Of a stretch of DNA of 64,000 nucleotides, positions 4,720 through 44,897 are shown piece after piece. Under the pieces are notes generated by a model that ran no database searches, was not told the origin of the DNA, and was given only the letters and a program-made list of their open reading frames with translations. Each line of letters starts with the position of its first letter. Positions within the stretch are counted from its first letter, which is position 1. Source of the DNA: a bacterium (GTDB lineage: Bacteria; Patescibacteriota; Minisyncoccia; 1-14-0-10-42-19); the NCBI GenBank assembly GCA_030690215.1, contig JAUYHD010000016.1, positions 17,681 through 81,680 on the forward strand, written 5' to 3'. Both the position numbers and the translations under genes were made by a program.

Positions 4720-4835
4720 AATTTAGTTATGAGTTAAGAGTAATAAGTTAGGAATAATAAGTTATGAGTAATGAGTTATGAGTTAAGAATAATAAGTTAA
4801 GAGTGATGAGTGATGAGTTATTTCACAGGCAAGCA
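4707..4835. repeat. Simple-sequence repeat array of GTTATGAGTTA / AGTAATGAGT units
   Basis: Tandem near-identical 10-12 nt units read directly; the same unit recurs at 55355-55375, 59843-59870 (inside miaA) and 62888-62915. Confidence 0.7.
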
Positions 4836-5026
4836 TCAAATATCAAAATTCAAATAATTTTTGCCATTAGAATTTTGGGCTTGATTTGATATTTGAGTTT
4901 TGGAATTTGGATTTTGTAGTTTGGTATTTCGCTCTAACATTCTATACGTTATAATTTTTGAATACATGGCGGAAAGATACAAGTTTTATTATACATGCTA
5001 TATGTTGCACGCTTCAAGTTACGTGT

Positions 5027-5788: not shown

Positions 5789-5967
5789 ACCCCGTTAGGC
5801 TAAATCGAAAAACGTCTTATTTGCAAAACCGCAGAAGATATTTCGATGTTCGCCCTTAATTGTACTTTTTAACACCACCATTTTGTGTTTCCCCATAAGA
5901 CGCAAAGGTTTTGGTTTCGATTTTGCCATACGGGGCATATATGTATAATATCACGCCTGTCGAGATA

Positions 5968-6920: not shown

Positions 6921-6935
6921 TCCCGACAGCAAAGG

Positions 6936-7006
6936 TGGACCCGCGGAGAATCGAACTCCGGCCTACCGGATGCAAACCGGTCGTTTTACCACTGAACTAC
7001 GGGCCC
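6936..7006 (-). tRNA. tRNA-Ala (anticodon TGC)
   Basis: Reverse complement GGGCCCGTAGTTCAGTGGTAAAACGACCGGTTTGCATCCGGTAGGCCGGAGTTCGATTCTCCGCGGGTCCA; G3:U70 Ala identity pair; cloverleaf folds; no encoded CCA. Confidence 0.9.
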
Positions 7007-7176: not shown

Positions 7177-7225
7177 TCAACCCCGTTAGATGAGCAGAGT
7201 TTGGAACGCTCTACCTAATGGGGCA
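7177..7225. repeat. Palindromic REP-like element CCCCGTTAGATGAGC...GCTCTACCTAATGGGG
   Basis: One of at least six copies in the window (7177, 26752, 33549, 36513, 45838, 50455). Confidence 0.7.
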
Positions 7226-9645: not shown

Positions 9646-11109
9646 CTAATCTTCCGGATTATCGCTTGAAAGAGCATCCGATATGTCGGTCTCTTCTTCT
9701 CCTTTCGGTTCCGCAACAAACCGGGCGTTAGGTATATTATTTTCTATGGTCGGATTCCAGTATATGATAACTCCCATGTTTGGTATCTCAACGGTGGTGA
9801 TGATATCCATATCTCCATCGCCATCAAGATCGCGCATAGTAATATTGTCGTACTTGGCTCCATTGGTATGAATGGAATGAAACTCCCATTCGCCGTGTAG
9901 ATCCGATTTCTGGGTCAGATAATAAATACCCTCGCCCTTATTCTGGAGATCTACCGTAGTAACAACGATATCCTTTCGGCCATCGTTATCCACATCGGCA
10001 AGTGCGGCATCTTTCGGAAAACCGCCGTACTGACCCACAGGAATCGTAACTATATCCCAATGAAGAGTTGGTTTGTTTATTCGTAAAGCAATAATAACTT
10101 CGGCGGGTTTTTTCCCGGCAATAACGATATCTTGCGTTCTGTCGCCGTTCGCGTCTCCGAAACCTATCATGCGAACTTCTTTGCGCCCTACGATGTAATG
10201 GCGTGGCCAGTATCCGGTATTATTTCCTGCTCCAAGATTTTCAAACCATACGACTCCGGCTTCTGCGTGCACTCCGCGATCAGGAACAATGATATCTATA
10301 TCACCATCCCAATCCATATCACGAGGATGAACGCCCATTTCCCATCCGGTTTCCTCTTTTGGAGAAATCATATGGAATACCCAGGCGTCACCGTCCAAAG
10401 GATCTCCGGTTGATTCAAACCAACCGAATATCCCTTTTCCGGGATCTCCGCTGTCCTTATCACCGCCCGCCACTATATCCCGGTCCCCGTCTCCATCAAG
10501 ATCGACAAATGCAGCGTCGTTCCATTCCTGTTTCATGCCGTCTGCGACCGAAGCGTATATGGTGTATGCTTCCCATCTATTTGGGTTAAGATAATCTTCC
10601 GTGCTCCATACGACATGAAAAATAATGCCGTCGCGCCCGGAGGAGATAACTCCGAAAATATCATCGCTTACGATTTTCGCAAGAAGTGCAAATTCAGCAT
10701 TCTTGTTTTGACCAACGGTAACGCATGGCCAAAAATCATACACGTATTCGCTCTGGCTCAAATCAAGCCTGCAAAAACGTATAACACCCCCGCTATCTTG
10801 CCATGAGGTCGCCGAATAATACGCGGCAACATTTCCCTCCTCGTCTTTCTCTTTTCGGAAACTTACGCCATCGGCGCCCTTCGCTTTGTCGGCCGAAGCA
10901 GAATCTTCTATGTAGGTGTATTGCCAAAATTCGGATTCGTCCGCTTTGCCATTGTTTCCTTTGTTTCCATTGTTCCCGGTGGCCTGTTCTATAAGCGCAT
11001 CAATGTTGCTATTAAAGCCCTGCGCCTTGTAGCTAAAAAATGACAATAGTACAAAAAGTACTATATAAACTAACAGCCAAAATACGCTTTGATTTGTTCT
11101 TGATCTCAT
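9646..11109 (-). CDS. Secreted FG-GAP / beta-propeller repeat protein (paralog 2)
   Basis: Same architecture and shared blocks (YTYIEDSAS, ATSWQDSGG(T/V)IR, GIFGWF, GVxWFEN) as 8205-9521. Confidence 0.65.
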   Translation of the reverse strand: MRSRTNQSVFWLLVYIVLFVLLSFFSYKAQGFNSNIDALIEQATGNNGNKGNNGKADESEFWQYTYIEDSASADKAKGADGVSFRKEKDEEGNVAAYYSATSWQDSGGVIRFCRLDLSQSEYVYDFWPCVTVGQNKNAEFALLAKIVSDDIFGVISSGRDGIIFHVVWSTEDYLNPNRWEAYTIYASVADGMKQEWNDAAFVDLDGDGDRDIVAGGDKDSGDPGKGIFGWFESTGDPLDGDAWVFHMISPKEETGWEMGVHPRDMDWDGDIDIIVPDRGVHAEAGVVWFENLGAGNNTGYWPRHYIVGRKEVRMIGFGDANGDRTQDIVIAGKKPAEVIIALRINKPTLHWDIVTIPVGQYGGFPKDAALADVDNDGRKDIVVTTVDLQNKGEGIYYLTQKSDLHGEWEFHSIHTNGAKYDNITMRDLDGDGDMDIITTVEIPNMGVIIYWNPTIENNIPNARFVAEPKGEEETDISDALSSDNPED

Positions 11110-11279
11110 GTAAACCCCCCGTTTTTGAATGTTTTTTTTAATGTAAACCTGGGCTCATTCTACTATAAAATTAATAAAATGTCAATACATACATTGACAA
11201 CTATAAATAAATATAGTATAGTTACTTAAATCAATTTAAACGTAGTACAATAAAAACATACCATTAAGGAGGTATCAGT

Positions 11280-11744
11280 ATGAACAAAGAATCGCCCGAT
11301 ATTAAAAACGATGCGGAAAAAATTCCAAACTATACAATGGAATTTTCTCAAACCAATTTTGAAACGGGCCCAAATGAATGTATCCTAAAAATCGTGATCA
11401 ACGAAAACGGGGAAGAAAAAACATTGGAAGCCCACTGGCCAAAGGAAGGAATCCAACTTTTTGATCCTCAAACAAAACGAGAATTGGAATTTGTATCACC
11501 CAAGACCATGAAAAAAATGTACGACCAGTTTATGTCGCTTAACCCTTCTTATCATGCTCTTATGGAGATGCGAGAAACTCGTTCCCTCCTAAAGTTTTTT
11601 TGGCTATCTCCGAAGAAACAAAAAGATCTTGTTGATCTTCTGAACATGGGGTCAACTAAGAAAGAAGCAGAACGCATCATGAAGATGCCCGAAGAAGAAC
11701 AAAAAAATATCTCTAAGGAGAACCCAGTGCATCGTCCAACATAA
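11280..11744 (+). CDS. Hypothetical protein
   Basis: AAGGAGG RBS 7 nt upstream of ATG; 154 aa; no recognised domain. Confidence 0.5.
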   Translation: MNKESPDIKNDAEKIPNYTMEFSQTNFETGPNECILKIVINENGEEKTLEAHWPKEGIQLFDPQTKRELEFVSPKTMKKMYDQFMSLNPSYHALMEMRETRSLLKFFWLSPKKQKDLVDLLNMGSTKKEAERIMKMPEEEQKNISKENPVHRPT

Positions 11745-11790
11745 AAGAGTTCCGAAAAAATCGGAACTCTTTTGCTTTTTACCTGAATTG

Positions 11791-12084
11791 TTAAAATTTT
11801 TTTATTTCTACGTGCCCGCACTTATAGCAATCCCCTCGCCATCGCCTAACGCCCCCAAGAACCAAAAATGGCGACCGTGTGTATTCTAACGTGCAGAGCA
11901 GACAATTCGGACATTGGTACGGCGTTCTCCAAATACCCAATTCTTTGCACACCCACCTATGCATGCGTAACGGCATAAAAAAAAGAAAGCCAATCAGTAT
12001 AAAAACGAGAAATAAAATTACAAAAAAAACAAACGCTACTACATTAAATCCCTCTTCGCCAAACCGCATTATTCTCTGATACAT
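11791..12084 (-). CDS. Small membrane-anchored zinc-ribbon protein, hypothetical
   Basis: Internal ATG preceded by AAAGGGGGGGAG; one TM helix; C-terminal CPNC...CYKCGH. Confidence 0.4.
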   Translation of the reverse strand: MYQRIMRFGEEGFNVVAFVFFVILFLVFILIGFLFFMPLRMHRWVCKELGIWRTPYQCPNCLLCTLEYTRSPFLVLGGVRRWRGDCYKCGHVEIKKF

Positions 12085-16646: not shown

Positions 16647-16730
16647 ATTTTTAATTTATAATTTCTAATTAATTTTTAATGATTCAATTTTGAAAACAGT
16701 TTAAAAATTTAAAATTGAAAATTAAAAATT

Positions 16731-17540
16731 ATGACTAAAGACCCCCTTCGCCGATCGCGGCGCTTTAAACGAAACAGACTTTTTAAGCGTTTTGCCCTGT
16801 TTGGAGGAGGGATTTTGGTTTGCTCAGCACTCGGCGTAGGATTTTTTTATATTCCCTATTTTTCCATTACCGCGGTCTCCCTTGAAGATCTCCGAACCCT
16901 TCCGGAAAAAGATATTACCGTGGAAATAAGCGCTCATCTGGATAGAAAAACGTGGGGGTTGCTTCCTCAAAATAATTTTTTTGTTTTTCTTTTTACCGCA
17001 TCCCGTCTGGAACAAACACTCAAACAAAAATTCCCTAAAATAAAATCAATAACAATCAAAAAACGCCCCCCCCATGCCATTGCCGTGCTGTTTGAGGAAC
17101 GGAAAATTTGGGCAACAATCTGCAAAGACGCATCTTGCTTTTACGCTGATGAGGAGGGTTTTCTTTTTGGAAAGTCATCGCGTATTTCAGGGTCGCTCTT
17201 TTTTAGCATTGAAGACAGGCGGAACGTCACCCATGCGATAGGAACGACCATCGCGAGCCCCGAAGAATTTAAAAATATAAAAACGCTCCTCCAGCGAATA
17301 GAAACCGTTACCGGCGCTTCTTTTTCAGCCCTCATGCTTTCTGGGTCAGAAGACCTTATCTCAAAATATGAAATAAAAACAAAAGATGGATGGCGCATTA
17401 TTCTTGATTCAAAAACAAACGGCGAGCTTGCCGCCGCAAACTTCATTTCCGCATTTGAGGGCATTCTCCAAAAAAATATGGAAGGTATTGATTATATTGA
17501 TGTGCGTCTAGAAAATAAAATTTTCTATAAATATAAATAA
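16731..17540 (+). CDS. FtsQ/DivIB-like cell division protein (basic N-terminus, one TM, POTRA-like)
   Basis: RRSRRFKRNR then a TM helix then a periplasmic domain; call based on topology only. Confidence 0.35.
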   Translation: MTKDPLRRSRRFKRNRLFKRFALFGGGILVCSALGVGFFYIPYFSITAVSLEDLRTLPEKDITVEISAHLDRKTWGLLPQNNFFVFLFTASRLEQTLKQKFPKIKSITIKKRPPHAIAVLFEERKIWATICKDASCFYADEEGFLFGKSSRISGSLFFSIEDRRNVTHAIGTTIASPEEFKNIKTLLQRIETVTGASFSALMLSGSEDLISKYEIKTKDGWRIILDSKTNGELAAANFISAFEGILQKNMEGIDYIDVRLENKIFYKYK

Positions 17541-19388: not shown

Positions 19389-19403
19389 CCGCACTAAAAA
19401 TTT

Positions 19404-19475
19404 GGGCACATAGTTCAGTGGTAGAACGCTGTCCTGATAAGACAGAGGTGCTAGGTTCGATTCCTAGTGTGCCCA
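19404..19475 (+). tRNA. tRNA-Ile (anticodon GAT)
   Basis: GGGCACATAGTTCAGTGGTAGAACGCTGTCCTGATAAGACAGAGGTGCTAGGTTCGATTCCTAGTGTGCCCA; cloverleaf folds; no encoded CCA. Confidence 0.9.
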
Positions 19476-19489
19476 TAAATTTTCCCAAA

Positions 19490-22646: not shown

Positions 22647-23405
22647 ATGTCAATAAGATTCGACATCATCACAATATTTCCCGGATTATTCGCCCCGTAC
22701 TTAAACGAGTCCATATTAAAACGCGCCCAAAAGAACAAATTAATAGATATTCGCGTCCACAATCTACGTGATTTTACGAAAGCAAAACACAAAAAAGTGG
22801 ACGATAAAGCATACGGCGGAGGACCCGGCATGGTGCTCCAGGCAGAACCAATCATAAAAGCAATACGCTCAATCTTAAATTCCAAATTCCAAAATCCAAA
22901 ATCCAAACAAATTCCAAAACTAAAAATTAAAAAAACGAAAATAATTTTGTTCACTCCTGCCGGGAAACAATTTGATGCTAAAATAGCGCAAAATTTTGCA
23001 TCACGCTATGATCATATCATTATGATCGCCGGCCGTTACGAAGGTGTTGACCATAGAATTTATAAAGTGCTTAAAAATATGCTTATTACTCATAACTCAT
23101 CACTTACAACTCTTTCCATAGGACCGTATGTCCTCACAGGAGGCGAACTCCCCGCCCTCATTATGATTGATGCCATAAGCCGTCATATTCCCGGCGTACT
23201 CGGTAAAAACGAATCGCTCGAAGAAAAACGCGGGGGCGCAGGCATTCCCGCGTATACTCGGCCGGAAAAAATCACTTGGAACAAGAAAACATATGCTGTC
23301 CCAAAAATACTCCTTTCGGGCAATCATAAAAAAATTGCCGCTTGGCTTGCCGCCAAGCGAGCCTCGCCAAAAATGCCAAGGAATATGAGAAGAAAAGGAG
23401 CGTAA
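22647..23405 (+). CDS. trmD: tRNA (guanine37-N1)-methyltransferase with an in-frame AT-rich simple-repeat insertion (nt about 22876-22920)
   Basis: MSIRFDIITIFP...YGGGPGMVL; insert encodes NSKFQNPKSKQIPKLKIKK from AAATTCCAAATTCCAAAATCCAAAATCCAAA. Confidence 0.9.
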   Translation: MSIRFDIITIFPGLFAPYLNESILKRAQKNKLIDIRVHNLRDFTKAKHKKVDDKAYGGGPGMVLQAEPIIKAIRSILNSKFQNPKSKQIPKLKIKKTKIILFTPAGKQFDAKIAQNFASRYDHIIMIAGRYEGVDHRIYKVLKNMLITHNSSLTTLSIGPYVLTGGELPALIMIDAISRHIPGVLGKNESLEEKRGGAGIPAYTRPEKITWNKKTYAVPKILLSGNHKKIAAWLAAKRASPKMPRNMRRKGA

Positions 23406-24358: not shown

Positions 24359-25378
24359 ATGGCAGTCATTAAAAAACATCCGATTCTTGCCGGCATAGGA
24401 ATAGGAGCGCTTCTCCTAGTAACTATCTTTCTGGTACTTATCTCGCTTACCCCCGCAAAAACCCCAAAAACATACGGTGTCACCTTCTCCCCCTTTTACG
24501 CGGAACGTTTCAATGTTCATTGGAAAGATGCGTATATTGCAATTCTTGACGATCTTGGCGTAAAGCACATTCGCCTTTCTGCGTATTGGAACGAGGTAGA
24601 AAAAACAGAACGTGTTTTTAATTTTTCCGATCTTGACTGGCAAATTCAAGAGGCGGAAAAACGGAATGTGGATATTGTGCTCGCCATCGGCAAAAAACTC
24701 CCTCGCTGGCCGGAGTGCCACATCCCCGAGTGGATAGAGGGCCTTACGCCCGAAGAACAACATGAAAAACTGCTTCGTTATATTTCAGAAACCATTCTTC
24801 GCTATAGGGACTCTCCGGCAATCACTCTATGGCAAATTGAAAATGAACCATTACTGCCATTCGGCGAATGTGTCCATATTTCTGAACAAGAGCTGGAAAA
24901 TGAACTGGCATTCGTGCGCGCGCTTGATTCGCGCCCCATACTTATCACCGCGTCAGGAGAACTCTCATTCTGGACAAAGGAAATAAAATACGCCGATGTA
25001 TTCGGCTCTACTCTCTATCGCATTGTATGGAACGATTCTCTCAAAAGACATATCACCTACCCCCTCCCCTCGTCCTTTTATCGCGCAAAACAAACTATCG
25101 CGCGCCTATTTGGAGGCAATAAACCGATGCTCGTTATAGAACTTCAGGGAGAATCTTGGAACAAAAAAATGACATACGAACTCCCCATAGAAGAACAGTA
25201 TATATCCATGAATCCCGAACGATTCCAGGGTGTTCTTTCGTATGCCTCGCGCACCGGCTTTGACACATTTTATCTATGGGGTGTTGAGTGGTGGTATTGG
25301 TTAAAAGTTACGCAAGATAAACCCGAAATGTGGGATATAGCGAAAGAAGCGATATATAATGCGAATATAGAAAAATAA
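24359..25378 (+). CDS. Membrane-anchored GH-A clan glycoside hydrolase (GH5-like, IENEP acid/base motif)
   Basis: N-terminal TM; WQIENEP; TIM-barrel-like length. Confidence 0.5.
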   Translation: MAVIKKHPILAGIGIGALLLVTIFLVLISLTPAKTPKTYGVTFSPFYAERFNVHWKDAYIAILDDLGVKHIRLSAYWNEVEKTERVFNFSDLDWQIQEAEKRNVDIVLAIGKKLPRWPECHIPEWIEGLTPEEQHEKLLRYISETILRYRDSPAITLWQIENEPLLPFGECVHISEQELENELAFVRALDSRPILITASGELSFWTKEIKYADVFGSTLYRIVWNDSLKRHITYPLPSSFYRAKQTIARLFGGNKPMLVIELQGESWNKKMTYELPIEEQYISMNPERFQGVLSYASRTGFDTFYLWGVEWWYWLKVTQDKPEMWDIAKEAIYNANIEK

Positions 25379-25393
25379 TATGGCCATAACGCA

Positions 25394-25490
25394 AAGCGTA
25401 AAACGAAAAGTTCAAAACTAATGTGAAATAATTTCAACAAAGTTGAAATTATTATTCCTAAGTTTTACGTTTTTATTTTTGAGCTTTTAG
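25394..25490. repeat. 95-bp AT-rich hairpin element (GTAAAACGAAAAGTTCAAAAC...GTTTTACGTTTTTATTTTTGAGC); near-identical copy inside 16S rRNA V1 at 34063-34170
   Basis: About 95% identity over about 95 nt read directly. Confidence 0.8.
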
Positions 25491-25537
25491 CTATACTGTG
25501 TGTTATTCACTTACTTAATAATTAAGTTTAACATTTT

Positions 25538-26740
25538 ATGAAATACGCTTTCCCTGATGGTTTTCTATGGGGTGCTTCTACCTCCTCTCATCAAGTAGAA
25601 GGCGGGAACACAAACCAATGGTCTGAATGGGAGAAAAAAAATGCAACGCGGCTCGCATCTGAAGCAACCAAAAAACATGGCACATTACCATCGTGGAACG
25701 ATATCCGAAAAGAAGCCAAAAATCCGCAAAATTATATTTCAGGAATTGCCTGCGACCACTATAACCGTTTTGAAGAAGATTTTGATATCGCAAAATCTCT
25801 AGGACATACGGCGCATCGCCTTTCTATAGAATGGTCGCGCGTTGAACCTCGCGAGGGATTTTTTGACGAAAAAGAAATCGCCCACTATCAACGCGTGATA
25901 CAAGCGCTTCGCGCGCGGAACATTGAGCCGTTTGTCACTCTTTGGCACTGGACGCTTCCATTCTGGGTTTCAAAACAGGGCAGTTGGGAAAACAAAAAAA
26001 CAATTTCGGATTTTGTCCGATACGCAAAAAAACTTGCGGAATCGCTACCGGAGGTACGGTTCTGGGTGACGCTCAACGAACCGCTCATTTATACCGGCAT
26101 GTCGTACATGGTTGGGACGTGGCCTCCACAAAAAAAATCGGTTATCGCTTACATTCGGGTAATACATAACCTCATAACGGCGCATAAGGACGCCTACCGT
26201 GTCATGCGCACCTCCGATAACCATATTGGCATCGCAAAACACAATATTGCATTTACCGGAATCGGTGCGATGTCTGCGCGCTGGTGGTTTAACCGATATT
26301 TTTTGGAAAAAATTAAAAATCATCAAGATTTTATCGGGTTAAATTATTACCAGCACAAAAACATGTTGTTTGGGAAAAATAATAAAAAAAACCCCACCGA
26401 TGTCGGCTGGGAAATATACCCCGAAGGAATATATCGAGTTCTTAAAGAACTCGCGCCCTACAAAAAACCAGTCTATATTACTGAAAACGGAATCGCAGAC
26501 GCGCACGATACAAAAAGGACGCAATTCATAAAAGACCATCTTATATGGATACACAAAGCAATCGCAGAGGGAGTTGGTGTGCGGGGGTATCTGTATTGGT
26601 CGCTCTTGGACAATTTTGAATGGAGTGATGGATTCTGGCCGCGATTCGGACTCGTAGAAGTTGACCGCCAAACCCTTGAACGGCGCATCCGTCCAAGCGC
26701 TCATGAGTACGCAAAAATTATAAAAAATAATGGTTTTTAA
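25538..26740 (+). CDS. Glycoside hydrolase family 1 beta-glucosidase
   Basis: FLWGASTSSHQVEGG N-terminus, TLNEP acid/base, ITENG nucleophile. Confidence 0.85.
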   Translation: MKYAFPDGFLWGASTSSHQVEGGNTNQWSEWEKKNATRLASEATKKHGTLPSWNDIRKEAKNPQNYISGIACDHYNRFEEDFDIAKSLGHTAHRLSIEWSRVEPREGFFDEKEIAHYQRVIQALRARNIEPFVTLWHWTLPFWVSKQGSWENKKTISDFVRYAKKLAESLPEVRFWVTLNEPLIYTGMSYMVGTWPPQKKSVIAYIRVIHNLITAHKDAYRVMRTSDNHIGIAKHNIAFTGIGAMSARWWFNRYFLEKIKNHQDFIGLNYYQHKNMLFGKNNKKNPTDVGWEIYPEGIYRVLKELAPYKKPVYITENGIADAHDTKRTQFIKDHLIWIHKAIAEGVGVRGYLYWSLLDNFEWSDGFWPRFGLVEVDRQTLERRIRPSAHEYAKIIKNNGF

Positions 26741-26744
26741 ATTT

Positions 26745-26960
26745 AGAGCATTGCCCCCGTTAGATAGGGCGTTGCGAAGCCCGCTCATCTAACGGGGTTG
26801 ACCCCGTAGAGCAATATCGTATGATGCATTCTTATACGTCATTTTATCAAACAACATTTATGAAAAAGCAAGAAAACAAACTAATGCATGTGTCGCTGGC
26901 GGCGAACGCATGACGTATTATGCGATATTGTCTAACGGGGCTGGGTTGACATAAATAAAA
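26745..26960. repeat. Composite palindromic repeat (CCCCGTTAGAT...CTAACGGGG plus GACCCCGTAGAGCAATATCG...), homologous to 46360-46545
   Basis: Shared blocks CCCCGTAGAGCAATATCG(T/C)ATGAT and TTATGCGAT...CTAACGGGG. Confidence 0.6.
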
Positions 26961-27012
26961 AAATAGTGTAGCATAACCCCAGTTTTTAAAAAGTGAAAGG
27001 GGGAATAGTACG

Positions 27013-27558
27013 TTGAAAAAAATACTACCCGGGATTATTTTACTTGTACTTTTTTTAGGATGTAGCGGAGCGGGAAATAATTTTCCCATACATGACAACT
27101 CGCACATAACAGACTATGGAATTGAATTTTTCCATAATGAATTCTACACAACCGACGAATTAAACGAGGCAGCACATACAGTGGACGTATATTTTGAAAT
27201 GGCTCAAGAGTGCGCAAAATCTATATATCCTGATATGACCGACGCGATTTACAGCTTGCCCGCTGAAGATATGCAAATTGTTGTACAGTTTCCTGACAAA
27301 TATAATCCGCAAACGGGACAAGAGGCTTTTTCATGTAAGTTTTCTAAAAAAGGATGCGCGGGAATATACTATATAGGCGGCACAATTGATATAACCCCGT
27401 CCCTTGACGCGCTCGGCCATGAAATGTCCCATTGGATAAATTTTATGCTCTTCGGAGAAACGAGTGACGATAACCCAAGTGACTTATCACAGGTATGCAA
27501 ATTTTCTTCAATCTGCCATCTCTATTCGCAAAACCGAAACCTCATAGCATGCCGATGA
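27013..27558 (+). CDS. Lipoprotein, putative zinc metalloprotease (HEMSH)
   Basis: Lipobox LFLGCSG; LGHEMSHW HExxH motif. Confidence 0.45.
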   Translation: MKKILPGIILLVLFLGCSGAGNNFPIHDNSHITDYGIEFFHNEFYTTDELNEAAHTVDVYFEMAQECAKSIYPDMTDAIYSLPAEDMQIVVQFPDKYNPQTGQEAFSCKFSKKGCAGIYYIGGTIDITPSLDALGHEMSHWINFMLFGETSDDNPSDLSQVCKFSSICHLYSQNRNLIACR

Positions 27559-27852
27559 TCTAAAATAAACACTCTATTTTTTGGGAAATAGGGTGTTTTT
27601 AATTACCCAGAAGTTATCAACAGTTAGTAAGTGCTGGGGGGGGGTAAAACATTATACTTATATAAAGGTCATTTTTCGTAATTGTATCTTCGTTCGCATA
27701 TTTTTATACTTTCGTAGCCTCGTTTCTATTTTCATAATTTTATTATCATTAACTGTCAAAACCATTTAATTTGGTAAAATCGTATATTTTTTAAAACAAA
27801 TACTGTGTATTGTTTTTTATAATTTTTATTTCAGTAATCTACTAATAATTGC

Positions 27853-30800
27853 ATGAAAAAAAATCTGTTCGGGGTTCTGACACTTGGAATCCTGGTTATT
27901 GTATCAAGTTTCGTTTCTACATCCGATGTTGCCGTAGCAGCACCTGTCCCTGGCAGCATAACCGTGTTTGCTTCTGATACTGGTGTTAACGACGCAACCG
28001 TGGGTACGCGAATTTGGGGCAATCCTCAAAATGTTTCAAGCAGTGATGACGTGTCCGCCCAGGCAAACTTCATAGAGGACCAGGATTTGATTACGCGGTA
28101 TCTCCGCGTTGCTCCTCAATCACTATCTGCAATCCCCGCAGGAAGCACTATTACCGGCATACAAGTTAGCGTTGAAAAGAAAAGGGGGGCAGCGGTTACT
28201 GTTAGGGATTATTCTATACGCCTTTATAAATCGGCGGGTTTTATAGGAAACAACAAAGCCGATACTGGCACTAACTGGCCCGCGTCAGACCAAACCTTCA
28301 CGTATGGGGGGTCGGGAGACTTATGGGGCGCCACATGGACAAGAGACGAAGTAGTAAATAATTTGCAGGTTGGGATTTCCGCCCAAAATACTTTTAACGG
28401 AGGGGCAGGGGCCGTCATTGATTCTATTCAATTCACTATTTGGTATGAATACACTCCGCCCGCCCCAACCGTAATTGAAGCAGACAACACCGTGTTTGCT
28501 GCAACTACCGGCGTCAACGACACAACCGTGGGTACAAAAATTTGGGGTACTACCAATAATATCGCGGCAAGCGATGATGCGTACTCACAAGTAAACCTTT
28601 TGACAGGCGGAGATATATCAAGGTATCTCCGTGTTGCTCCGCAGTCACTTTCTTCAATTCCTGAAGGGAGCACAATTAAAGGCATACAAGTCAGCATTGA
28701 GAAAAGTAGAGGTACGCAATTTGTTAAAGATTATTCTATACGCCTCTACAAATCCGGAACGGGCTACATAGGCAGCGACAAAGCTAACACAAGCGTTAAC
28801 TGGCCTGCTTTAGATGAAATAGTTACCCATGGAGGTAATGGTGATTTGTGGGGGACCACATGGACCAGAGATGAAGTGGTTAATAATTTGGAAGTGGGAA
28901 TTTCCGCCCAAAACCAAACTACCACTTCAGCAGGAGCAAAGATCGATTCCATACAGTTTACTATTTGGTATGAATACACTCCGCCCGCCCCAACCGTTGA
29001 CCTAAAAGCAAACAGCGCCAACGGACCAATATCAATTGACTACAACACAGGTGCAACACTTTCGTGGGCTTCGACAAACGCAACATCGTGTGCCGCATCA
29101 AACGCATGGTCCGGAACAAAAGGCACATCAGGGTCAGAATCAACCGGAAATCTTACAGCATCAAAAACATACACGATAACGTGTACAGGGACAGGGGGAA
29201 GCGCAAATGATAGCGTTACAATAAATGTCCTCGCACCACCGCCCCCACCTCCTCCGCCACCGCCTCCTCCGCCTCCTCCGGCAACAACTGTATGCCAAGG
29301 CTCTGTAACTCTCTATCAACACATCAACTATATCGGTTATTCAGCGGGTTTTGATGTTGGCACCTACACCCTTGCACAACTTCAAGCATGCGGAGTTATT
29401 AACAACGACATATCTTCAATGAAGGTACCGAATGGCTACCAGGCAACGTTATATGATGGAGACAACTATTCAGGAATAAGTCTTACGCGAACTACTGACG
29501 ACAGCACATTGGTAGATGACGGGTTTAATGATTTAACTACATCGCTACGCGTAACAACCATTTCAACAACACCCACTCCTCCACCTCCGCCACCTCCATC
29601 GCCGGAACCTTCTCCAACTCCCCCACCGCCACCTCCTCCAACAAGCAACCTTGCTTTCCAAATTAATGACAAAATCCAAGTAACATCAGGACCTCTCAAT
29701 GTAAGAAGTTGCGCAAGCTTATCTTGCAACTCTCTTGGTATACAACCAACAGGTTCTTTGGGGTCAATTATCGGAGGCCCAACATTTGCAGATGGATTTT
29801 TCTGGTGGAATATCAATTACGATAACGCTCCGGATGGTTGGTCGGTTGAAAATTTCTTAACTCTCGTAACCTCAACTCCTCTACCACCTCCTCCACCGCC
29901 ACCGCCTCCAGCACCAGAACCTTCTCCAGCTCCACCGCCGCCACCTCCTCCAACAAGCAACCTTGCTTTCCAAATTAATGACCGTATTCAAGTAAACACA
30001 GGGAGCTCGGAATTTAATCTTAATGTCCGATCAACAGCAAATGGCACGATCGTTGGACAGCAATCAAACGGTGCGTTGGGAACTATTATCGGTGGGCCTC
30101 AAAGTGCTGGCAGCCACACATGGTGGAATGTTAATTTTGATGTAGCGCCTGATGGATGGGTTGCTGGAGATTTTCTTGTCACCAGTTCATCTCCTTCTCC
30201 AACACCTCCACCTCCGCCACCTCCTCCAGCACCGGAACCTTCTCCAACTCCCCCACCGCCACCTCCTCCAACAACAACCCTACTTTCTATTCCCGGAACC
30301 ATACAAGCAGAAAGCTATAAAGTAGGGGGCGAGGGTATTGGGTATCATGACACTACCCCAACAAACGATGGGGGCGCCGGGACTCGCAATGATGGAGTGG
30401 ATATAAAAGATGTCCCGGGTGAAGGTTTGACTATCGGATTTACAAATATCGGCGAATGGCTTGCATACGATGTAAGTGTCTCCCAAGGAGGGACATACTC
30501 TATTGATCTCCGCATCGCAAACGGAGAAACAACAAATCGTTCTCTCCACCTGGAAATAGACGGAACAAATAAAACCGGTTCGGTTACCGTGCCATCTACC
30601 GGATCATGGAACACACAAACAACTATTACAGTGCCCAATGTTTCCCTTACCCAAGGAACTCATGTATTGCGCGTTGTGTTTGACAATACCCCGCTTGATC
30701 TCAATTGGATGTTGTTTAATTTTGTTTCTTCCGGAAGTCCGTCTGCGCCTTCTGTGTCCACAAAATTCCAGATAAACGACCGCGTGCAAACAACAGACAA

Positions 30801-32835
30801 TCTTAATGTCCGCTCAATACCTTCAACTGTAACTGGGGTGGTGCTCGGCACGCACCAAACGGGATCACTCGGGACAATTATTGGCGGACCCGTTTTTGCA
30901 AACAATATTTGGTGGTGGCAAGTAAATTACGATAACAATCCTGACGGCTGGTCTGCTGAAAACTTTTTAACAAAATCAACAACGTCAGCACCACCGCCGC
31001 CGCCTCCTCCGACAACCATAGACATCAAAGCAAATAGCTCCGATGGACCAATATCCATTGCGTATAATTCAAGCGCAACACTTAGTTGGACTTCCTCAAA
31101 CACAACATCTTGCACCGCATCAAACGCATGGTCCGGAACAAAAAGCACATCGGGATCAGAATCAACCGGAAATCTTACGGAATCAAAAACATACACAATG
31201 ACCTGCACAGGAACTGGAGGAAGCGCAAATGACAGTGTCACGGTTAATGTAAATCCTCTGTCGACTCCTCCGCCTCCTCCCCCACCACCTCCATCTTCTA
31301 GCAATGAAGCACTCATATATGTAGATAATCAAAATTCCTCTGCTTCAGATTCTAACCCAGGAACAGTAACAAGCCCGCTAAGAACTATCGGCAAAGCCGC
31401 TCAACTAGCAAACTCAAAAAATAAGAGCGGAATTCCGGTACGAATTATTGTAAAAGCAGGCACATATCGAGAGTCGGTTGCATTCAATGATGAAACCGGC
31501 ATCACAACATCACCTATTACTATTGAGGGATCCCCCATCGGACAAGCAATTATTTCAGGATCAGATGTATGGACAGGATGGACTTCTACATCAGGTCTCT
31601 GGGTTCATGACTGGCCTTATGACTGGGGCGCGGTTTCCTGGCTTGGCGTACCCTCCGGAGAACTCGCAAGACGCCGCGAAATGGTATTCGTAAACGGTGA
31701 ACACTACATGCAAGCTCTTTCAACGGGAGAACTGACGGACAAAACCTTTTATGTAGATGAGGTCAACAATAAAATCTATGTAAAATCTTCCACCAATCTG
31801 AACACCTCAAAAGTAGAAGTCGGCACCCGGAAAGGAATATTCTATGCAAAGAATAGGCAAAACTTTACAATACGGGGCATGATATTCCAACACGATACCA
31901 CTGCCGGTGATTTATCTGGTGTTAATTTCGTCCTCATGAAAAACCTTGTCATAGAAGACAGTAAATTTTTGTGGAATAACTGGGGTGGGATGCAAATTAC
32001 AAGAGGTGAGGGAATTACCGTACGCAGACTCGTTGGTAATTATAATGGCGGGAAAGGAACAGAAATGGTGTTTAGCAAAAATGCCTTATGGGAAGATATA
32101 GAAAGTTCATATAACAACTGGCGCGGAGATTCGGGAGGGTTCAACCAATGGAGTGTCGCAGGTTCAAAGCACTTAAGGAACCGAGATGTTACATATCGTA
32201 ATTTTGTCGTCGCCAACAACAAAGCGAGAGGATTTTGGCTCGATTATGATAACTCTGGCATTGTTTTTGACGGTCTTATTTCTATTAATAATTATGAGAG
32301 CGGTATCTCTCTTGAAGCCAACCAGGGTCCGATACTTGTAAAAAATAGCGCAATCTGTGGGAACGGCGACTATGACGGAGTAAGAACCTCAACTTCATGG
32401 GGCGGACTTATTTCTGCAAACTCCATGAACATTACTATCCAGGATAGTGTTTTCTATCGGAACGTTGTTACTAATATTCGGACTCACGGAGCAAACATCC
32501 GACCGATCAACGATTTCGTAACAGGAGGGGTGCATGACGGAATATCGAAAAATTGGACATGGACGGGCATCGTTGATGTGGGCCAAGGCACAAATGAGTT
32601 GCTTGTGTATAGAGTAGATGACGCTACTGAATTTTTGGATACCCTTACGGTAAACAACAATATTTATTGGAACCCTACTGACCCAAATACATTCAATGCT
32701 AATGGGAGAACAGATTTTGCCGGATGGAAAACTAAAACCGGTCAAGAGCAAAACTCGGTATTTGCCGATCCAAATACTCTTTCTTTGACCAGCCAACAAA
32801 GAGCACTGCTAGACAGATGCATTGCTAGCTACTAA
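27853..32835 (+). CDS. Giant secreted multidomain surface protein (1660 aa). Signal peptide; 2x about 175-aa repeat; 2x Ig-like; poly-Pro linkers; beta/gamma-crystallin; 3x SH3b-like; CBM6-like; C-terminal right-handed beta-helix.
   Basis: Duplicated NxNGPISIxYNxxATLSWxSxNxTSCxASNAWSGTK Ig-like units (29000-29235, 31017-31255); Greek-key CQGSVTLYQHINYIGY...; CBM6-like LSIPGTIQAESYKVGGEGIGYHD...GEWLAYDV...LNWMLF; beta-helix NFTIRGMIFQHD... Confidence 0.7.
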   Translation: MKKNLFGVLTLGILVIVSSFVSTSDVAVAAPVPGSITVFASDTGVNDATVGTRIWGNPQNVSSSDDVSAQANFIEDQDLITRYLRVAPQSLSAIPAGSTITGIQVSVEKKRGAAVTVRDYSIRLYKSAGFIGNNKADTGTNWPASDQTFTYGGSGDLWGATWTRDEVVNNLQVGISAQNTFNGGAGAVIDSIQFTIWYEYTPPAPTVIEADNTVFAATTGVNDTTVGTKIWGTTNNIAASDDAYSQVNLLTGGDISRYLRVAPQSLSSIPEGSTIKGIQVSIEKSRGTQFVKDYSIRLYKSGTGYIGSDKANTSVNWPALDEIVTHGGNGDLWGTTWTRDEVVNNLEVGISAQNQTTTSAGAKIDSIQFTIWYEYTPPAPTVDLKANSANGPISIDYNTGATLSWASTNATSCAASNAWSGTKGTSGSESTGNLTASKTYTITCTGTGGSANDSVTINVLAPPPPPPPPPPPPPPPATTVCQGSVTLYQHINYIGYSAGFDVGTYTLAQLQACGVINNDISSMKVPNGYQATLYDGDNYSGISLTRTTDDSTLVDDGFNDLTTSLRVTTISTTPTPPPPPPPSPEPSPTPPPPPPPTSNLAFQINDKIQVTSGPLNVRSCASLSCNSLGIQPTGSLGSIIGGPTFADGFFWWNINYDNAPDGWSVENFLTLVTSTPLPPPPPPPPPAPEPSPAPPPPPPPTSNLAFQINDRIQVNTGSSEFNLNVRSTANGTIVGQQSNGALGTIIGGPQSAGSHTWWNVNFDVAPDGWVAGDFLVTSSSPSPTPPPPPPPPAPEPSPTPPPPPPPTTTLLSIPGTIQAESYKVGGEGIGYHDTTPTNDGGAGTRNDGVDIKDVPGEGLTIGFTNIGEWLAYDVSVSQGGTYSIDLRIANGETTNRSLHLEIDGTNKTGSVTVPSTGSWNTQTTITVPNVSLTQGTHVLRVVFDNTPLDLNWMLFNFVSSGSPSAPSVSTKFQINDRVQTTDNLNVRSIPSTVTGVVLGTHQTGSLGTIIGGPVFANNIWWWQVNYDNNPDGWSAENFLTKSTTSAPPPPPPPTTIDIKANSSDGPISIAYNSSATLSWTSSNTTSCTASNAWSGTKSTSGSESTGNLTESKTYTMTCTGTGGSANDSVTVNVNPLSTPPPPPPPPPSSSNEALIYVDNQNSSASDSNPGTVTSPLRTIGKAAQLANSKNKSGIPVRIIVKAGTYRESVAFNDETGITTSPITIEGSPIGQAIISGSDVWTGWTSTSGLWVHDWPYDWGAVSWLGVPSGELARRREMVFVNGEHYMQALSTGELTDKTFYVDEVNNKIYVKSSTNLNTSKVEVGTRKGIFYAKNRQNFTIRGMIFQHDTTAGDLSGVNFVLMKNLVIEDSKFLWNNWGGMQITRGEGITVRRLVGNYNGGKGTEMVFSKNALWEDIESSYNNWRGDSGGFNQWSVAGSKHLRNRDVTYRNFVVANNKARGFWLDYDNSGIVFDGLISINNYESGISLEANQGPILVKNSAICGNGDYDGVRTSTSWGGLISANSMNITIQDSVFYRNVVTNIRTHGANIRPINDFVTGGVHDGISKNWTWTGIVDVGQGTNELLVYRVDDATEFLDTLTVNNNIYWNPTDPNTFNANGRTDFAGWKTKTGQEQNSVFADPNTLSLTSQQRALLDRCIASY

Positions 32836-33548: not shown

Positions 33549-33598
33549 TTGACCCCGTTAGATGAGCGAGCTTTGAGAAGCTCTATCTAATGGGGCTT
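33549..33598. repeat. Palindromic REP-like element followed by a promoter-like TTGACC-17-TATACT
   Basis: CCCCGTTAGATGAGCGAGCTTTGAGAAGCTCTATCTAATGGGG then GCTTGACCTCAATAATAAAAGGATTATACT. Confidence 0.6.
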
Positions 33599-33960: not shown

Positions 33961-36192
33961 CTTTTTGAGAGTTTGATCCTAGCTCAGGATGAACGCTGGC
34001 GGCGTGGATAAGGCATGCAAGTCGTACGGTCGTGCCTCTCTATCGCTCAGCACTCCCTAAGCTCAAAGTGTAAAACGAAAAGTTCAAAACTAATGTGAAA
34101 TAATTTCAACAAAGTTGAAATTATTATTCCTCAGTTTTACGTTTTTATTTTTGAGTTTTTAGTTTGAGTGCCGAACGGCAGTGAGGCACGACAGTGGCAG
34201 ACGGGGTAGTAACACGTAGGTACATACCACTGAGACAAGAATAACCCAGAGAAATCTGGGATAATACTTGATAGTCTAGTGATCGATTTTCCCTCACAAG
34301 ATGTTTTAATTTTTAATTCTCAATTATCAATTTTCAATAAAAATTTGGAAATTGAAACTTTCTCGCCTCGCCGTAGCTTTAGCGAAGCGGAAACATTGTC
34401 CGCCAGAGGCGGATCCTCCTCCGGAGGAAAAATTCAAAACAGTCCTTGCGGGTAAAAATCGGTTACTAGTAAAGGTTCGTAAGAACCGCTCGGTGAATGG
34501 CCTGCGGGCTATCAGCTTGTTGGTGAGGTAACGGCTCACCAAGGCTATGACGGCTAGGGGGTGTGAGAGCATGGCCCCCACCAATGGAACTGAGACACGG
34601 TCCATACATCTACGGATGGCTGCAGTCGAGAATATTGGGCAATGGGCGAAAGCCTGACCCAGCGACGCCGCGTGCAGGATGAAGGCCTTCGGGCTGTAAA
34701 CTGCTTTTATGGGGGAGGAATCCCCTCCTTGAGGTTGAGTGTGGTACAATCACGCTATGTATTATGTATATATCCTGAAATTAAATAATGAAAAATTATA
34801 CATCGGATACACTGTGGATTTAAAAAGGCGTATTGTTGAACACGAAACAGGAATGAGTATGCATACTAAAAAATTTTTACCTTGCATGCTTGTTTATTAT
34901 GAAGCATACAAATCACGAAAAGATGCGATGAAGCGTGAGAAAAATCTAAAAAAATTCAAAAGTTCATACAGACAATTAAAAATACGTATTGCTTCAAGTA
35001 TATTCGACACCAAGGAGGGGATGACGTTACCCCATGAATAAGGGCTTGCTAACCTCGTGCCAGCAGCCGCGGTAATACGAGGGGCCCAAGCGTTATCCGG
35101 AATCACTGGGCGTAAAGGGTTCGTAGGGGGTTGTATTAGTCCTATGTTAAAGCCTTCGGCTTAACCGAAGAAATGCATAGGAAACGGTATAACTGGAGGG
35201 TGTGAGAGGCTGATGGAACTCACGGTGTAGGGGTGAAATCCGTTGATATCGTGGGGAACACCAAATGCGAAGGCAATCAGCTGGCGCATTCCTGACCCTG
35301 AAGAACGAAAGCGTGGGGATCGAAAAGGATTAGATACCCTTGTAGTCCACGCCCTAAACGTTGATGACTAGCTATTGGAAGTATCGACCCTTCCAGTGGC
35401 GTAGCTAACGCGTTAAGTCATCCGCCTGGGAATTACGATCGCAAGATTAAAACTCAAAGGAATAGACGGGGACTCGCACAAGCGGTGGAGCATGTGGTTC
35501 AATTCGATGATAAGCGAAAAACCTTACCAGGGCTAGAAATTCTAGTGAAGTCGACCCGAAAGGGACGATGTCTCACAAGGACACTAGGACAGGTGCTGCA
35601 TGGTTGTCGTCAGTTCGTGGTTTGAACTGTTCCCTTAAGTGGGTCAACGAACGCAACCCCCGTTGCCTGTTATACATGTCAGGCAAGACTGCCCCTCACT
35701 TTGCGCACAAGCGCAAAGTGAGTTTACTAGTTACGCCTTGCTCTAGTTTGCTAGTTTAAATTTTACAACTAGAAAACTAAAGTGAGCAGAGCGAACGTAA
35801 CTAGAAAACTCACTTTGTTCGTTTGCGAACAAAGTGAGGGGAGGAAGGTGGGGATGACGCCAAATCAGCATGGCCCTCGACGTCCTGGGCTACACACATG
35901 CTACAATGGCACGTACAAAGGGCCGCAAAAGAGCAATCTGGAGCAAATCCCATCAAAACGTGCCCTAGTTCGGATTGAGGTCTGCAACTTGACCTCATGA
36001 AGCTGGAATCGCTAGTAATCGCAGATCAGCACGCTGCGGTGAATACGTTCTCGAGTCTTGTACTCACCGCCCGTCAAGTCAGGGAAGTCGGGAGTACCCG
36101 AAGTGCCAGGTATCTGGCCCGAAGGTAAGCTCGATAACAAGGACTAAGTCGTAACAAGGCACGGCTAGCGGAAGCTGGTCGTGGATCATTAT
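33961..36192 (+). rRNA. 16S rRNA gene, about 2.23 kb, with four insertions. (a) 34063-34170 hairpin element; (b) about 34275-34480 V2 expansion; (c) about 34720-35020 GIY-YIG ORF; (d) about 35694-35848 palindromic insertion. The 3' end is ...GGATCATTATCT and lacks CCUCC.
   Basis: Conserved blocks AGAGTTTGATCCTAGCTCAG, GTGCCAGCAGCCGCGGTAATAC, GGATTAGATACCCTTGTAGTCC, GCATGTGGTTCAATTCGATG, TACACACCGCCCGTCA, AAGTCGTAACAAGG read in order. Confidence 0.9.
34757..35041 (+). CDS. GIY-YIG nuclease-family ORF embedded in the 16S rRNA V3 insertion (possible intron-encoded homing endonuclease)
   Basis: MYYVYILKLNNEKLYIGYTVDLKRRIVEHETG is a canonical GIY-YIG motif; the ORF 3' end runs into the conserved TGACGTTACC rRNA sequence. 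Confidence 0.7.
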   Translation: MYYVYILKLNNEKLYIGYTVDLKRRIVEHETGMSMHTKKFLPCMLVYYEAYKSRKDAMKREKNLKKFKSSYRQLKIRIASSIFDTKEGMTLPHE

Positions 36193-36338
36193 CTAAACTA
36201 TTTCCGATATTCATTTGATTTTTATCAAAAGAAGAAGCGGAACAGTTAGGCGATACTCCCACTGGGAGTAATAGGTGTTAGTCGCGGAGCCTTTAAATCG
36301 CGACTTGAACGGAGCAAAAGAAAACGCACATACACAAA

Positions 36339-36512: not shown

Positions 36513-36590
36513 CATTGACCCAGTTAGATGAGCAAGCTTTGCGAAGCTCTATCTAACGGGGTTGACAATACTCCCCCATTCTGTAGAATA
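36513..36590 (+). promoter_or_regulatory. REP-like palindrome whose 3' arm supplies a -35 (CTAACGGGGTTGACA) for a TTGACA-17-TAGAAT promoter; about 200-nt structured leader upstream of the MoxR-vWA gene
   Basis: Sequence read directly; leader contains hairpin TGCCTTTTTCTATGCATAAAAGGCA. Confidence 0.45.
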
Positions 36591-41223: not shown

Positions 41224-41589
41224 AGTCCTATTCTAAAAAATCAAAACTTATAATATAAAAATAAATCCCTCGTGTCAACCCAGCCCCACTTTCACATAAA
41301 AAGGTGGGGCTGGGCCAACCCCATACTTGCAAAAATCTTAGCTTTCTGCTAAAGTTTCGAATAGTGAGTACAAATCGCTCCATAAGCTGAGAGGGCGAAA
41401 ATGAGTCATCTTGATCCCCCATTCCTAATCGCTTGCGCGAGGGAATGGGGTGTTTTTTTTGTTTACGAAAAATAAAAAATGGGCCACCCGAAGGCGACCC
41501 TGTACTTGTTGTTTAAAACGGCTCTTGTACCCTAGCCGAGTTTGTAATATGGGCCTATTATAGTGCTCTCGCCTACTGCTGTAAAGAGC

Positions 41590-41690
41590 AAACACAGATT
41601 AAAACTAATTACAGCTTTTTGCTTTACGTTGTAGTTTTGCGCTTTGAACTTTGCGTTTTTAGCCTTACTTGTCTTTATATTATTTAAAAT
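41590..41690. repeat. Intergenic repeat (GCTTTACGTTGTAGTTTTGCGCTTTGAACTTTGCGTTTT) present in inverted orientation at 44795-44890
   Basis: Reverse complement aligns with CTCAAAACGCAAAGTTTAAAGCGTAAAACTACAACGTAAAGC at 44800-44842. Confidence 0.6.
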
Positions 41691-43955: not shown

Positions 43956-43959
43956 CATA

Positions 43960-44095
43960 ACATTAAAAACCAAATTCCAAATAACAAATATCAAACAATA
44001 TCCAATTTTCAATAGGCAAGCCCCAAACCGTGTTTTAAATTTGTAATTTTGAATTTGTTTGAGATTTGGATTTTGGTATTTGTCATTTTATCAAA
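43960..44095. repeat. AT-rich simple-sequence region of CAAAT/ATTCCAAA-type units (family shared with 4845-4930, the trmD insert, the 16S V2 insert and 62200-62260)
   Basis: Read directly. Confidence 0.55.
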
Positions 44096-44783: not shown

Positions 44784-44897
44784 CGTTGAAACTCAAAACG
44801 CAAAGTTTAAAGCGTAAAACTACAACGTAAAGCTAAAAGGTTTTTTGTTTTAAGCTGTAGTTTTGACTTTTGAGCTCTAAACTTTGAGCTTTTTAAA

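Follow-up and report, generated by a model that had tools for sequence, protein, structure and literature searches.

Insertions are common in the rRNA genes of Candidate Phyla Radiation (CPR) bacteria; in a survey of 380 CPR 16S and 348 CPR 23S rRNA genes, insertions of at least 100 bp were present in 48% of the former and 82% of the latter (PMC11270868, Tsurumaki et al. 2024, J Bacteriol), and, as cited in that work, they were first noted by Brown et al. 2015. Those encoding GIY-YIG nucleases are never intron-like, while the short (<200 bp) insertions without an open reading frame (ORF) are uncharacterised, being located mostly at the tops or bases of stem-loops and possibly representing intervening sequences of the RNase III type (PMC11270868). 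Here we describe a 64 kb stretch of Patescibacteriota DNA (the window, to which coordinates refer unless a contig is named) in which a hairpin-forming repeat is present in two near-identical copies, one (copy A) in the spacer between two glycoside hydrolase (GH) genes and the other (copy B) at the tip of helix 6, in the V1 region of the 16S rRNA gene. A recent copying event linked the spacer hairpin and the helix 6 tip, and helix 6 grew from 16 to about 170 nt.

Intervening sequences, the removal of which often leaves the mature rRNA in fragments, are known in 16S rRNA of Helicobacter and Campylobacter, and Clostridium paradoxum has inserts in V1. The Rickettsia palindromic elements (RPEs), which are ~100-150 nt long and for which no transposase is known, provide a second point of reference. 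Intervening sequences excised by RNase III have been described in 23S helices 25 and 45, e.g. in Salmonella, Leptospira, and Coxiella (PMC4990558). In the genome of Rickettsia bellii, RPEs number 526 (PMC1458961); protein genes contain 53 of them, and the tmRNA gene contains one. A further group comprises the miniature inverted-repeat transposable elements (MITEs) and the repetitive extragenic palindromic (REP), REPIN, and BIME elements, including Correia, ERIC, RUP, and REPs with their RAYT transposases (PMC3116915, PMC3184786).

A repeat search of the window gave a 99-nt direct repeat, 25392-25490 (copy A) and 34064-34162 (copy B), with 96 of 99 positions identical, the copies being in the same orientation and 8672 bp apart. 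The three differences (25397/34069, c/t; 25460/34132, a/c; 25484/34156, c/t) are such that two are in separate internal loops of the predicted fold and one is in a marginal G-U pair; 62 bases are shared exactly in one run. A gapped alignment reaches further left (25384-25490 versus 34055-34162, 94% over 108 columns), and the full elements, both on the forward strand, span 25381-25493 for A (nhmmer E 6.9e-31; minimum free energy (MFE) -26 kcal/mol, z -3.7) and 34053-34166 for B (nhmmer E 1.5e-31). Three sub-patterns of 23-29 nt, allowing up to three mismatches, matched at A and B only, with 0.00-0.01 matches expected in shuffled sequence. The flanks beyond the block cannot be aligned and are unrelated, so that a segmental duplication is ruled out as the source of the pair. 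On both points, a near-identical hairpin in a spacer and within V1, and flanks that are unrelated, the original prediction was right.

Its description of the element itself needs revision. Perfect pairing is limited to a 12-bp apical stem (AAUAAUUUCAAC/GUUGAAAUUAUU), so that 'perfect stem-loop' applies to the apex, the element as a whole being an imperfect, bulged hairpin. Likewise, the proposed inverted termini, CTCAAAG...TTTGAG, can be read in B, the left terminus of which is CTCAAAG, but A has CGCAAAG, and in both copies the termini are the outer part of one long hairpin with a period of ~7 nt, the terminal complementarity (CTAAGCTCAAA/TTTGAGTTTTTAG) being part of a pairing that runs along its whole length. 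A permissive Rfam search with copy A gave sub-threshold look-alikes of miRNA precursors only, i.e. generic hairpins, and a phage BLAST search gave a 50-nt match that is attributable to chance.

Copy A lies in a spacer of 159 nt, starting 3 nt past the stop codon of a GH-A-type gene (24359-25378, forward strand; Pfam Glyco_hydro_42, E 1.3e-6, with GH5 'Cellulase' sub-threshold) and ending 45 nt before the start of a GH1 gene (25538-26740, forward strand; E 1.1e-89). An identical copy A was found in two independent Logan assemblies.

Copy B, by contrast with A in its spacer, is embedded in a structural RNA. The 16S rRNA gene (33961-36196, forward strand; Rfam SSU_rRNA_bacteria, 1340.9 bits, model positions 1-1533) is 2236 nt long and has four lineage-specific insertions, in helix 6, V2, helix 17 (h17), and helix 40 (h40). 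In the Rfam alignment, the first of these, at helix 6/V1, adds 142 nt to the apical loop of the model's first hairpin, and copy B is inside it. The region 34020-34205 is predicted to fold as a single long hairpin with about 60 pairs (MFE -66.3 kcal/mol, z -6.8), in which a GC-rich outer stem (GGUCGUGCCUC/GAGGCACGAC) and further segments lead into copy B, which makes up the distal two-thirds. Alignment, folding, and comparison with a relative (below) together place the whole helix 6 extension at 34028-34195 on the forward strand. No ORF of 80 aa or more is present on the helix 6 insert, and an Rfam scan of the whole window at the gathering score returned the small subunit rRNA and two tRNAs only, with no intron family; readings of the repeat as a riboswitch, a small RNA, or a group I or group II intron were rejected, as no model matches.

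The relative was identified through the MoxR-type ATPase encoded beside the 16S gene, which has a single close homologue among 5.8 billion proteins, 77% identical at the amino acid level, in a Candidatus Niyogibacteria metagenome-assembled genome (MAG) from Crystal Geyser. The contig concerned (L071) is syntenic with window positions 21408-52514, and the 16S gene at the syntenic position is 1558 nt long; its helix 6 is 16 nt (GTGGGTttagACCCAC, i.e. GTGGGT-ttag-ACCCAC), it is without the V1, V2, and h17 insertions, and its h40 insertion is shorter. Thus, the helix 6 extension is a lineage-specific gain. It is not, however, a clean insertion of the 99-mer into an otherwise conserved V1: the entire helix 6 is replaced by a hairpin of ~170 nt, of which the repeat is the distal 99-108 nt only.

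Of the other 16S insertions, that in h17 (34729-35041, 288 nt) contains an ORF (34757-35041, forward strand) for a small GIY-YIG nuclease (PF01541, E 9.7e-14; MYYVYILKLNNEKLYIGYT...); it is not in the 16S gene of the relative and fits the CPR class of GIY-YIG-bearing, non-intron rRNA insertions. The ORF was looked up with two alternative starts and gave no matching record. The V2 insertion (34287-34459, 173 nt) includes a low-complexity, AT-rich stretch of 55 nt that is 76% identical to spacer sequence at 16678-16731. The h40 insertion (35690-35845) is a hairpin of ~150 nt, the insert at the same site in the relative being shorter and unrelated. Convincing twins of these other insertions were not found in the window, nor did the h40 insert of the relative have a twin within the relative's own loci. 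The 16S 3' end (36180-36200; L071 9270-9284) is GGATCATTATCTAA in both organisms, with the canonical CCUCC anti-Shine-Dalgarno sequence missing. No 23S or 5S gene follows the 16S, so the rRNA genes are unlinked; tRNA-Ala (6934-7006) and tRNA-Ile (19403-19476) are 27 kb and 14 kb away, on mutually opposite strands.

A and B belong to a family of dispersed, AT-rich hairpin repeats of 100-130 nt, which in this Parcubacteria-like genome are located in short intergenic spacers. A third, diverged member, copy C (44788-44895, reverse strand; MFE -31.8, z -4.8), identified by self-comparison and nhmmer, is ~64% identical to B and fills the 114-nt spacer between nusB and rnc, ending 4 nt before the start codon of the RNase III gene. 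The Smith-Waterman score for B versus C is 32, compared with 19.4 +/- 1.8 (maximum 25) for 60 shuffles. A hidden Markov model (HMM) built from A, B, and C detected a fourth, partial member, copy D (41584-41665, forward strand; nhmmer E 4.6e-8, D not being in the model), downstream of an SMC gene, and residues 41615-41662 of D are 92% complementary to one arm of C. These four are the members in the 64 kb window; the family ends they share can be written AAGCTCAAAG ... AGTTTTACG(Y)TTT..TTTG(M)G(Y)TTT(K)AG.

Beyond the window, a 22-nt degenerate pattern for the 3' arm, which matched true members only in 1.25 Mb of CPR DNA, was found at 120 loci or more in JGI/ENA metagenome contigs; filtering with the HMM left at least ~32 hairpins in at least ~25 loci among the matches listed, with two to four copies on some contigs. 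Some of these copies are without the seed pattern, i.e. four on contig L113 and two each on L176 and L186. One contig, L113, was typed as Parcubacteria, its UvrD being 73% identical to a Candidatus Lloydbacteria protein. The HMM gave no matches in 1.11 Mb of other Patescibacteria DNA and none in five viral contigs that match the pattern; thus the family is lineage-restricted, and a match to the pattern does not in itself produce a match to the HMM.

The architecture of the family is unusual. All 16 aligned copies are predicted to fold as one long hairpin, with z of -2.6 or below in 13, and the arms, including those of A and B, are runs of ~7-nt words, CTCAAAR in the A-rich 5' arm (52% A) and YTTTGAG in the T-rich 3' arm (54% T). 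The periodicity is seen in self-match values of 0.57 at lag 7 and 0.55 at lag 14, compared with ~0.2 at lags 3-4 and 10-11. With their bulges, these hairpins escape a scan for ungapped inverted repeats. As to location, 20 of the 23 for which context could be classified are between co-directional genes, generally a few nt from the stop and start codons. The family is not simply 'every spacer', since, among the spacers surveyed, only those of A and C (25-31% GC) both fold strongly and pass from an A-rich first to a T-rich second half. An Rfam scan of 20 of the ~25 hit-bearing loci, five further loci lying outside it, revealed no rRNA gene, and copy B is the only family member seen in one. The tip of helix 6 has a sequence of the kind normally found in intercistronic spacers.

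Likeness is greater within than between genomes, with 97% identity for A and B, 92% over 48 nt for C and D, ~88% (by eye) for the L186 copies, and a match of more than 30 nt between L113a and L113b. By comparison, the Lloydbacteria lineage (73%-related) is without the family in the orthologous spacers, where it has hairpins made of other words (CCCCAATGA/TTGGGG). A Lloydbacteria-like contig, L203, provides the example; it has a conjugation/pilus-type cluster (PrgI, TraC-like) with hairpins (11016-11170 and 11624-11800) in the same spacers as L113 643-8078, built from words (CCCCAATGA/TTGGGG and GATTTAAGATTTATGA) other than those of L113, implying replacement or concerted evolution of spacer hairpins. 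In the Niyogibacteria relative, A, B, and D are not present, but at the spacer orthologous to that between nusB and rnc (window 44784-44897) there is a shorter hairpin (L071 16868-16937) with a related arm sequence, ACGCTTTGAATTTTGCGTTTTG; some members are therefore old and site-stable rather than recently mobile. The family thus combines turnover with, at one site, long persistence.

We favour, with moderate confidence, the explanation that a hairpin of this family was recently copied between the GH-A/GH1 spacer and the tip of 16S helix 6. One recent event at the DNA level would have put the same subfamily sequence at both loci, the candidates being a transposition-like insertion and the conversion of a short tract from one family hairpin to another at a distance of 8.7 kb. 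The rRNA copy may persist because a self-complementary insert at a helix tip would only lengthen the helix coaxially, helix 6 being variable and tolerant of changes in length. In the transcript, the extension might stay in place as an expansion segment, or RNase III might remove it as a classical intervening sequence. The analysis shows the two copies with their hairpin folds and positions, their absence from the relative, and the family in its genomic context; the mechanism and direction of copying, and the fate of the RNA, are inferred.

Several observations weigh against this explanation. The nearest relative is distant, at about a different genus level, so that the A and B sites, although unoccupied there, are not clean pre-insertion alleles. 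In the relative, the GH-A-type orthologue (its counterpart in the window being the gene with which the syntenic block ends) is followed not by GH1 but by a 149-aa gene on the opposite strand. Among GTDB genomes, GH1 homologues reach 59% identity at most, with no synteny, so that loci retrieved through GH1 were of no use in an empty-site test. No consistent target-site duplication is present at A, B, and 12 other copies (14 in total), though the original prediction had suggested looking for such; the flanks of A and B share TA only, which is trivial in AT-rich DNA. There is no transposase among ten ORFs tested, mostly from non-syntenic parts of the window and including a methyltransferase, a DUF1861 protein, and the GIY-YIG nuclease, and neither an HUH/Y1 transposase nor a reverse transcriptase was detected in this set. 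The ends of the element are not sharply defined, being the same as its periodic arms; only two near-identical copies are visible within 64 kb; and copy C persists, in its shorter form, in the relative. An exact search for the apex motif GAAATAATTTCAACNNNGTTGAAATTATT was negative in GTDB genomes, JGI metagenomes, and IMG/VR, implying that these collections include neither the source genome nor a close relative of it. RNAalifold, applied to 3 and to 16 copies, gave no usable covariation signal, because the periodicity of the arms lets aligned copies shift out of phase with one another. With low-complexity periodic arms, part of the family-level similarity could be convergent, but this cannot apply to A and B, in which the non-periodic apex is also identical. 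Finally, copy B is without direct read-level confirmation, a point to which we return below.

The variable segment at the spacer locus extends over 25379-27852 and contains the GH1 gene, a cluster of repeats, and a 181-aa ORF resembling a lipoprotein, in place of the 149-aa gene of the relative (L071 4399-5130), which encodes a membrane protein. Copy A is exactly at its left junction.

A first alternative is gene conversion without any transposition, in which older, diverged hairpins already resident at both loci would have been homogenised by an ectopic recombination tract of ~99 nt. In its favour are the sharp block of 97% identity, the left ends outside it (CCATAACG versus CCCTAAGCT), which differ at about the family level of divergence yet can still be aligned, and the family-type words TTTGAG/GCACTC, which in B run on past the block. 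The loci are close and in direct orientation, and the families look genome-specific, the orthologous spacers of a related lineage having different words, which suggests concerted evolution. However, possible older homology outside the block is ~8 nt on one side with nothing convincing on the other, and the spacer locus is a rearrangement junction, with a GH1 gene that is not in the relative, where an old resident hairpin is not to be expected. We consider it unlikely that gene conversion on its own accounts for the pair.

The proposal that A and B are a classical MITE, i.e. a shortened, non-autonomous insertion sequence that relied in trans on a transposase gene at another genomic site and entered both the helix 6 loop and the spacer, is somewhat less probable. 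Related termini (AAGCTCAAAG ... TTTGAGYTTTKAG) are present at four places in the window and on many metagenome contigs, including the one typed as Parcubacteria, the length of ~100-130 nt is suitable, and both sites are empty in the relative. The original prediction, that the element is like a MITE and was recently mobile or that a loop is tolerated at this site, is thus partly supported, by the twin copies, the dispersed family, and the absence of both copies from the relative. However, with 14 copies giving only the trivial TA in place of a duplicated target, no transposase among the ten ORFs, termini that are indistinct from the arms and periodic throughout, and copy C kept in place in a relative at 77% amino acid identity, a MITE is not demonstrated. 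The term 'MITE-like' may be used loosely at most, for a small, dispersed repeat that forms a hairpin; a better description is that of a dispersed palindromic repeat that has been copied into the tip of an rRNA helix.

Transfer may have gone from the spacer into the rRNA gene or the other way, or a third copy may have given rise to both. An origin of the spacer copy specifically from the rRNA, by the distal part of the helix 6 extension being copied out, e.g. as an excised intervening-sequence fragment or by template switching at the DNA level, would be consistent with the left end of B (AAGCTCAAAG, common to C), which is nearer to the family consensus than that of A (AACGCAAAG), with the seemingly longer and more complete form of B, and with the position of A at a recently rearranged junction. 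We nevertheless regard it as improbable, since of the ~30 other members none has been seen in an rRNA gene, with the scope given above, and most of those that can be classified are intergenic; moreover, the ten ORFs include no reverse transcriptase, and the 16S gene of the relative is without the extension. The better fit of B than A to the family left end and the location of A at a rearrangement junction make a third, unseen master copy quite possible.

It might also be that the hairpins are functional RNA modules maintained by selection, recognised by a shared factor such as RNase III or a ribosomal or assembly protein, with the spacer copy mimicking the rRNA helix for the purposes of regulation or processing. 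In E. coli, the rnc leader contains a hairpin through which RNase III regulates its own expression; copy C, directly before the RNase III gene, resembles that hairpin, a related hairpin is kept there in the relative, and the hairpins nearly fill their intercistronic spacers. This possibility appears very improbable as an explanation of the pair, because recent copying better accounts for an identity of 97% that extends to residues in loops and bulges, a link between a pair of glycoside hydrolases and the ribosome has no obvious rationale, and covariation provides no usable signal. Considered separately from A and B, the hairpin before rnc could be an autoregulatory site for RNase III like that of the E. 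coli leader.

With respect to the reality of copy B, Logan graphs use k = 31 and hold each 31-mer once per accession (PMC12424806), and the Logan contigs from this organism stop at 33989 and restart at 36161, both inside universally conserved 16S sequence, so that an independent contig through V1 was not obtained. One contig (L002, SRR13727534) begins at 25430, and its first 31-mer (25430-25460) is the first to include the A-specific base at 25460 (C in B); a second copy with the other base in that independent sample would be expected to break the graph at this point, so that the contig start is indirect support for B. A second contig (L001, SRR26726065; window 24674-26747) passes through copy A unbroken, implying either that coverage was too low or that the population sampled is without the 16S copy, a possible insertion polymorphism. 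That the V1 copy is a chimeric join made by a metagenome assembler is, in our view, extremely improbable: 16S genes of MAGs are often misassembled, no Logan contig spans the gap, and L001 crosses A with no sign of the graph break to be expected from a second copy, but the copies differ at three positions, L002 begins precisely where the A-specific base enters the 31-mer, and the unique sequences beside B are complementary, so that the helix runs on for another ~35 nt on either side as far as the conserved helix 6 base, an arrangement that would not result from a random chimera.

The consequences of the extension for the rRNA may depend on RNase III, the enzyme that would process long double-stranded hairpins of this type. 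Its gene (rnc) is in the window (44091-44783, reverse strand), with the Pfam Ribonuclease_3 and dsrm domains assigned on an identical gene of a Logan contig (L069 7931-8623), and the 16S gene is bracketed by a pre-16S processing stem of 26 bp (33808-33833/36306-36331). Excision of the helix 6 insert as an intervening sequence is thus plausible; its retention as an expansion segment is equally possible.

Other spacers in the window also contain repeats. A second family, a 47-nt hairpin (TTGACCCCGTTAGATGAGC...CTATCTAACGGGG), is present at 7177-7223, 26755-26803, 33549-33595, and 36515-36561, i.e. beside tRNA-Ala, just after GH1, and on both sides of the 16S gene, where the upstream copy is followed by a sigma-70-like promoter (TTGACC-16 nt-TATACT). 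A third family (..GCCTAACGGGGTAAAGCCCCGT..), consisting of blocks of 40-80 nt with 86-91% identity, is located at 3309-3471, 5788-5821, 26794-26942, and 46232-46540, and Logan contigs break inside its copies (L069 at 46370, L196 at 3334, L002 at 26817). Further word-periodic, AT-rich spacers (AGTTATGAGTTAAGAG..., AAATTCCAAAATCCAAA/TTTGGATTTTGG), partly complementary between loci, are at 4711-4929, 22875-22934, 43951-44088, 55347-55394, and 59842-59889; from the differing words, the genome holds several 'word' families of spacer repeats. Upstream of the 16S gene, a 1660-aa ORF (27853-32835) has internal repeats in the form of 238-nt units (82% identity) and numerous CCGCC-rich repeats of 28 nt, the latter possibly coding for Gly-rich tracts; its counterpart in the relative is 1297 aa long, with CARDB, Laminin_G_3, and beta-helix domains.

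Several practical and biological implications follow from the presence of one sequence in both a spacer and an rRNA helix. Inserts of this type lengthen and destabilise 16S assemblies and amplicons, and repeats common to rRNA genes and spacers break de Bruijn assemblies at these points. The hairpin family, placed tightly between stop and start codons, may reflect how operons in these genomes are generally organised. With a 97% identical twin in a spacer, the helix 6 insert provides a concrete, testable source for the short CPR rRNA inserts, and suggests one way in which those that are unexplained could arise. More tentatively, and as a possibility that we would not put higher than that, the short ORF-less insertions in CPR rRNA genes may in general arise from genome-specific, heptad-periodic intercistronic hairpin repeats that are copied or converted into helix tips, A and B being an early case that is perhaps polymorphic between samples; as long double-stranded substrates of RNase III that can be removed from the RNA, such hairpins would be nearly neutral in an rRNA.

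Comparison with the described systems places the helix 6 insert as follows. Like the small MITE and REP/BIME elements, the family hairpins are small, non-coding, and intergenic, and form genome-specific sequence families. By contrast with those elements, there is no target-site duplication at 14 copies and no transposase, including of the RAYT type, among the ten ORFs, and whereas REPs are GC-rich, imperfect palindromes of 20-40 nt with a conserved 5' tetranucleotide, the present hairpins are AT-rich, periodic, and ~110 nt long. A literature search found no description of periodic-arm hairpins of this type in Patescibacteria, which is absence of evidence only. For the entry of a palindromic repeat into the gene of a structural RNA, the RPEs are the nearest precedent in function; they too are palindromic repeats scattered through a reduced genome, some within functional genes, one of which is for a structural RNA. 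The resemblance is functional only; the present family is from a different phylum, has arms with a ~7-nt period, and is mostly in intercistronic spacers.

As with RNase III-excised intervening sequences, the other of the two closest precedents, the insert is an extra hairpin at a helix tip that is not in the relative, is sporadic in phylogeny, and has a long double-stranded stem in a genome that encodes RNase III; it differs from the usual examples in being in helix 6 of 16S rather than in 23S rRNA and in having a sequence common to non-rRNA loci in the same genome. The insert is a member of the short, ORF-less class of CPR insertions (PMC11270868): it is more than 100 nt longer than the E. 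coli counterpart, caps a stem-loop within a region of low conservation, has no annotated ORF, matches no intron model, and coexists with a GIY-YIG-encoding, non-intron insertion in the same gene. For that class no source of sequence has been proposed, whereas the helix 6 insert has a 97% identical twin in a spacer. What is new here is thus an rRNA insert with an intergenic twin and membership of a definable repeat family with an unusual periodic architecture.

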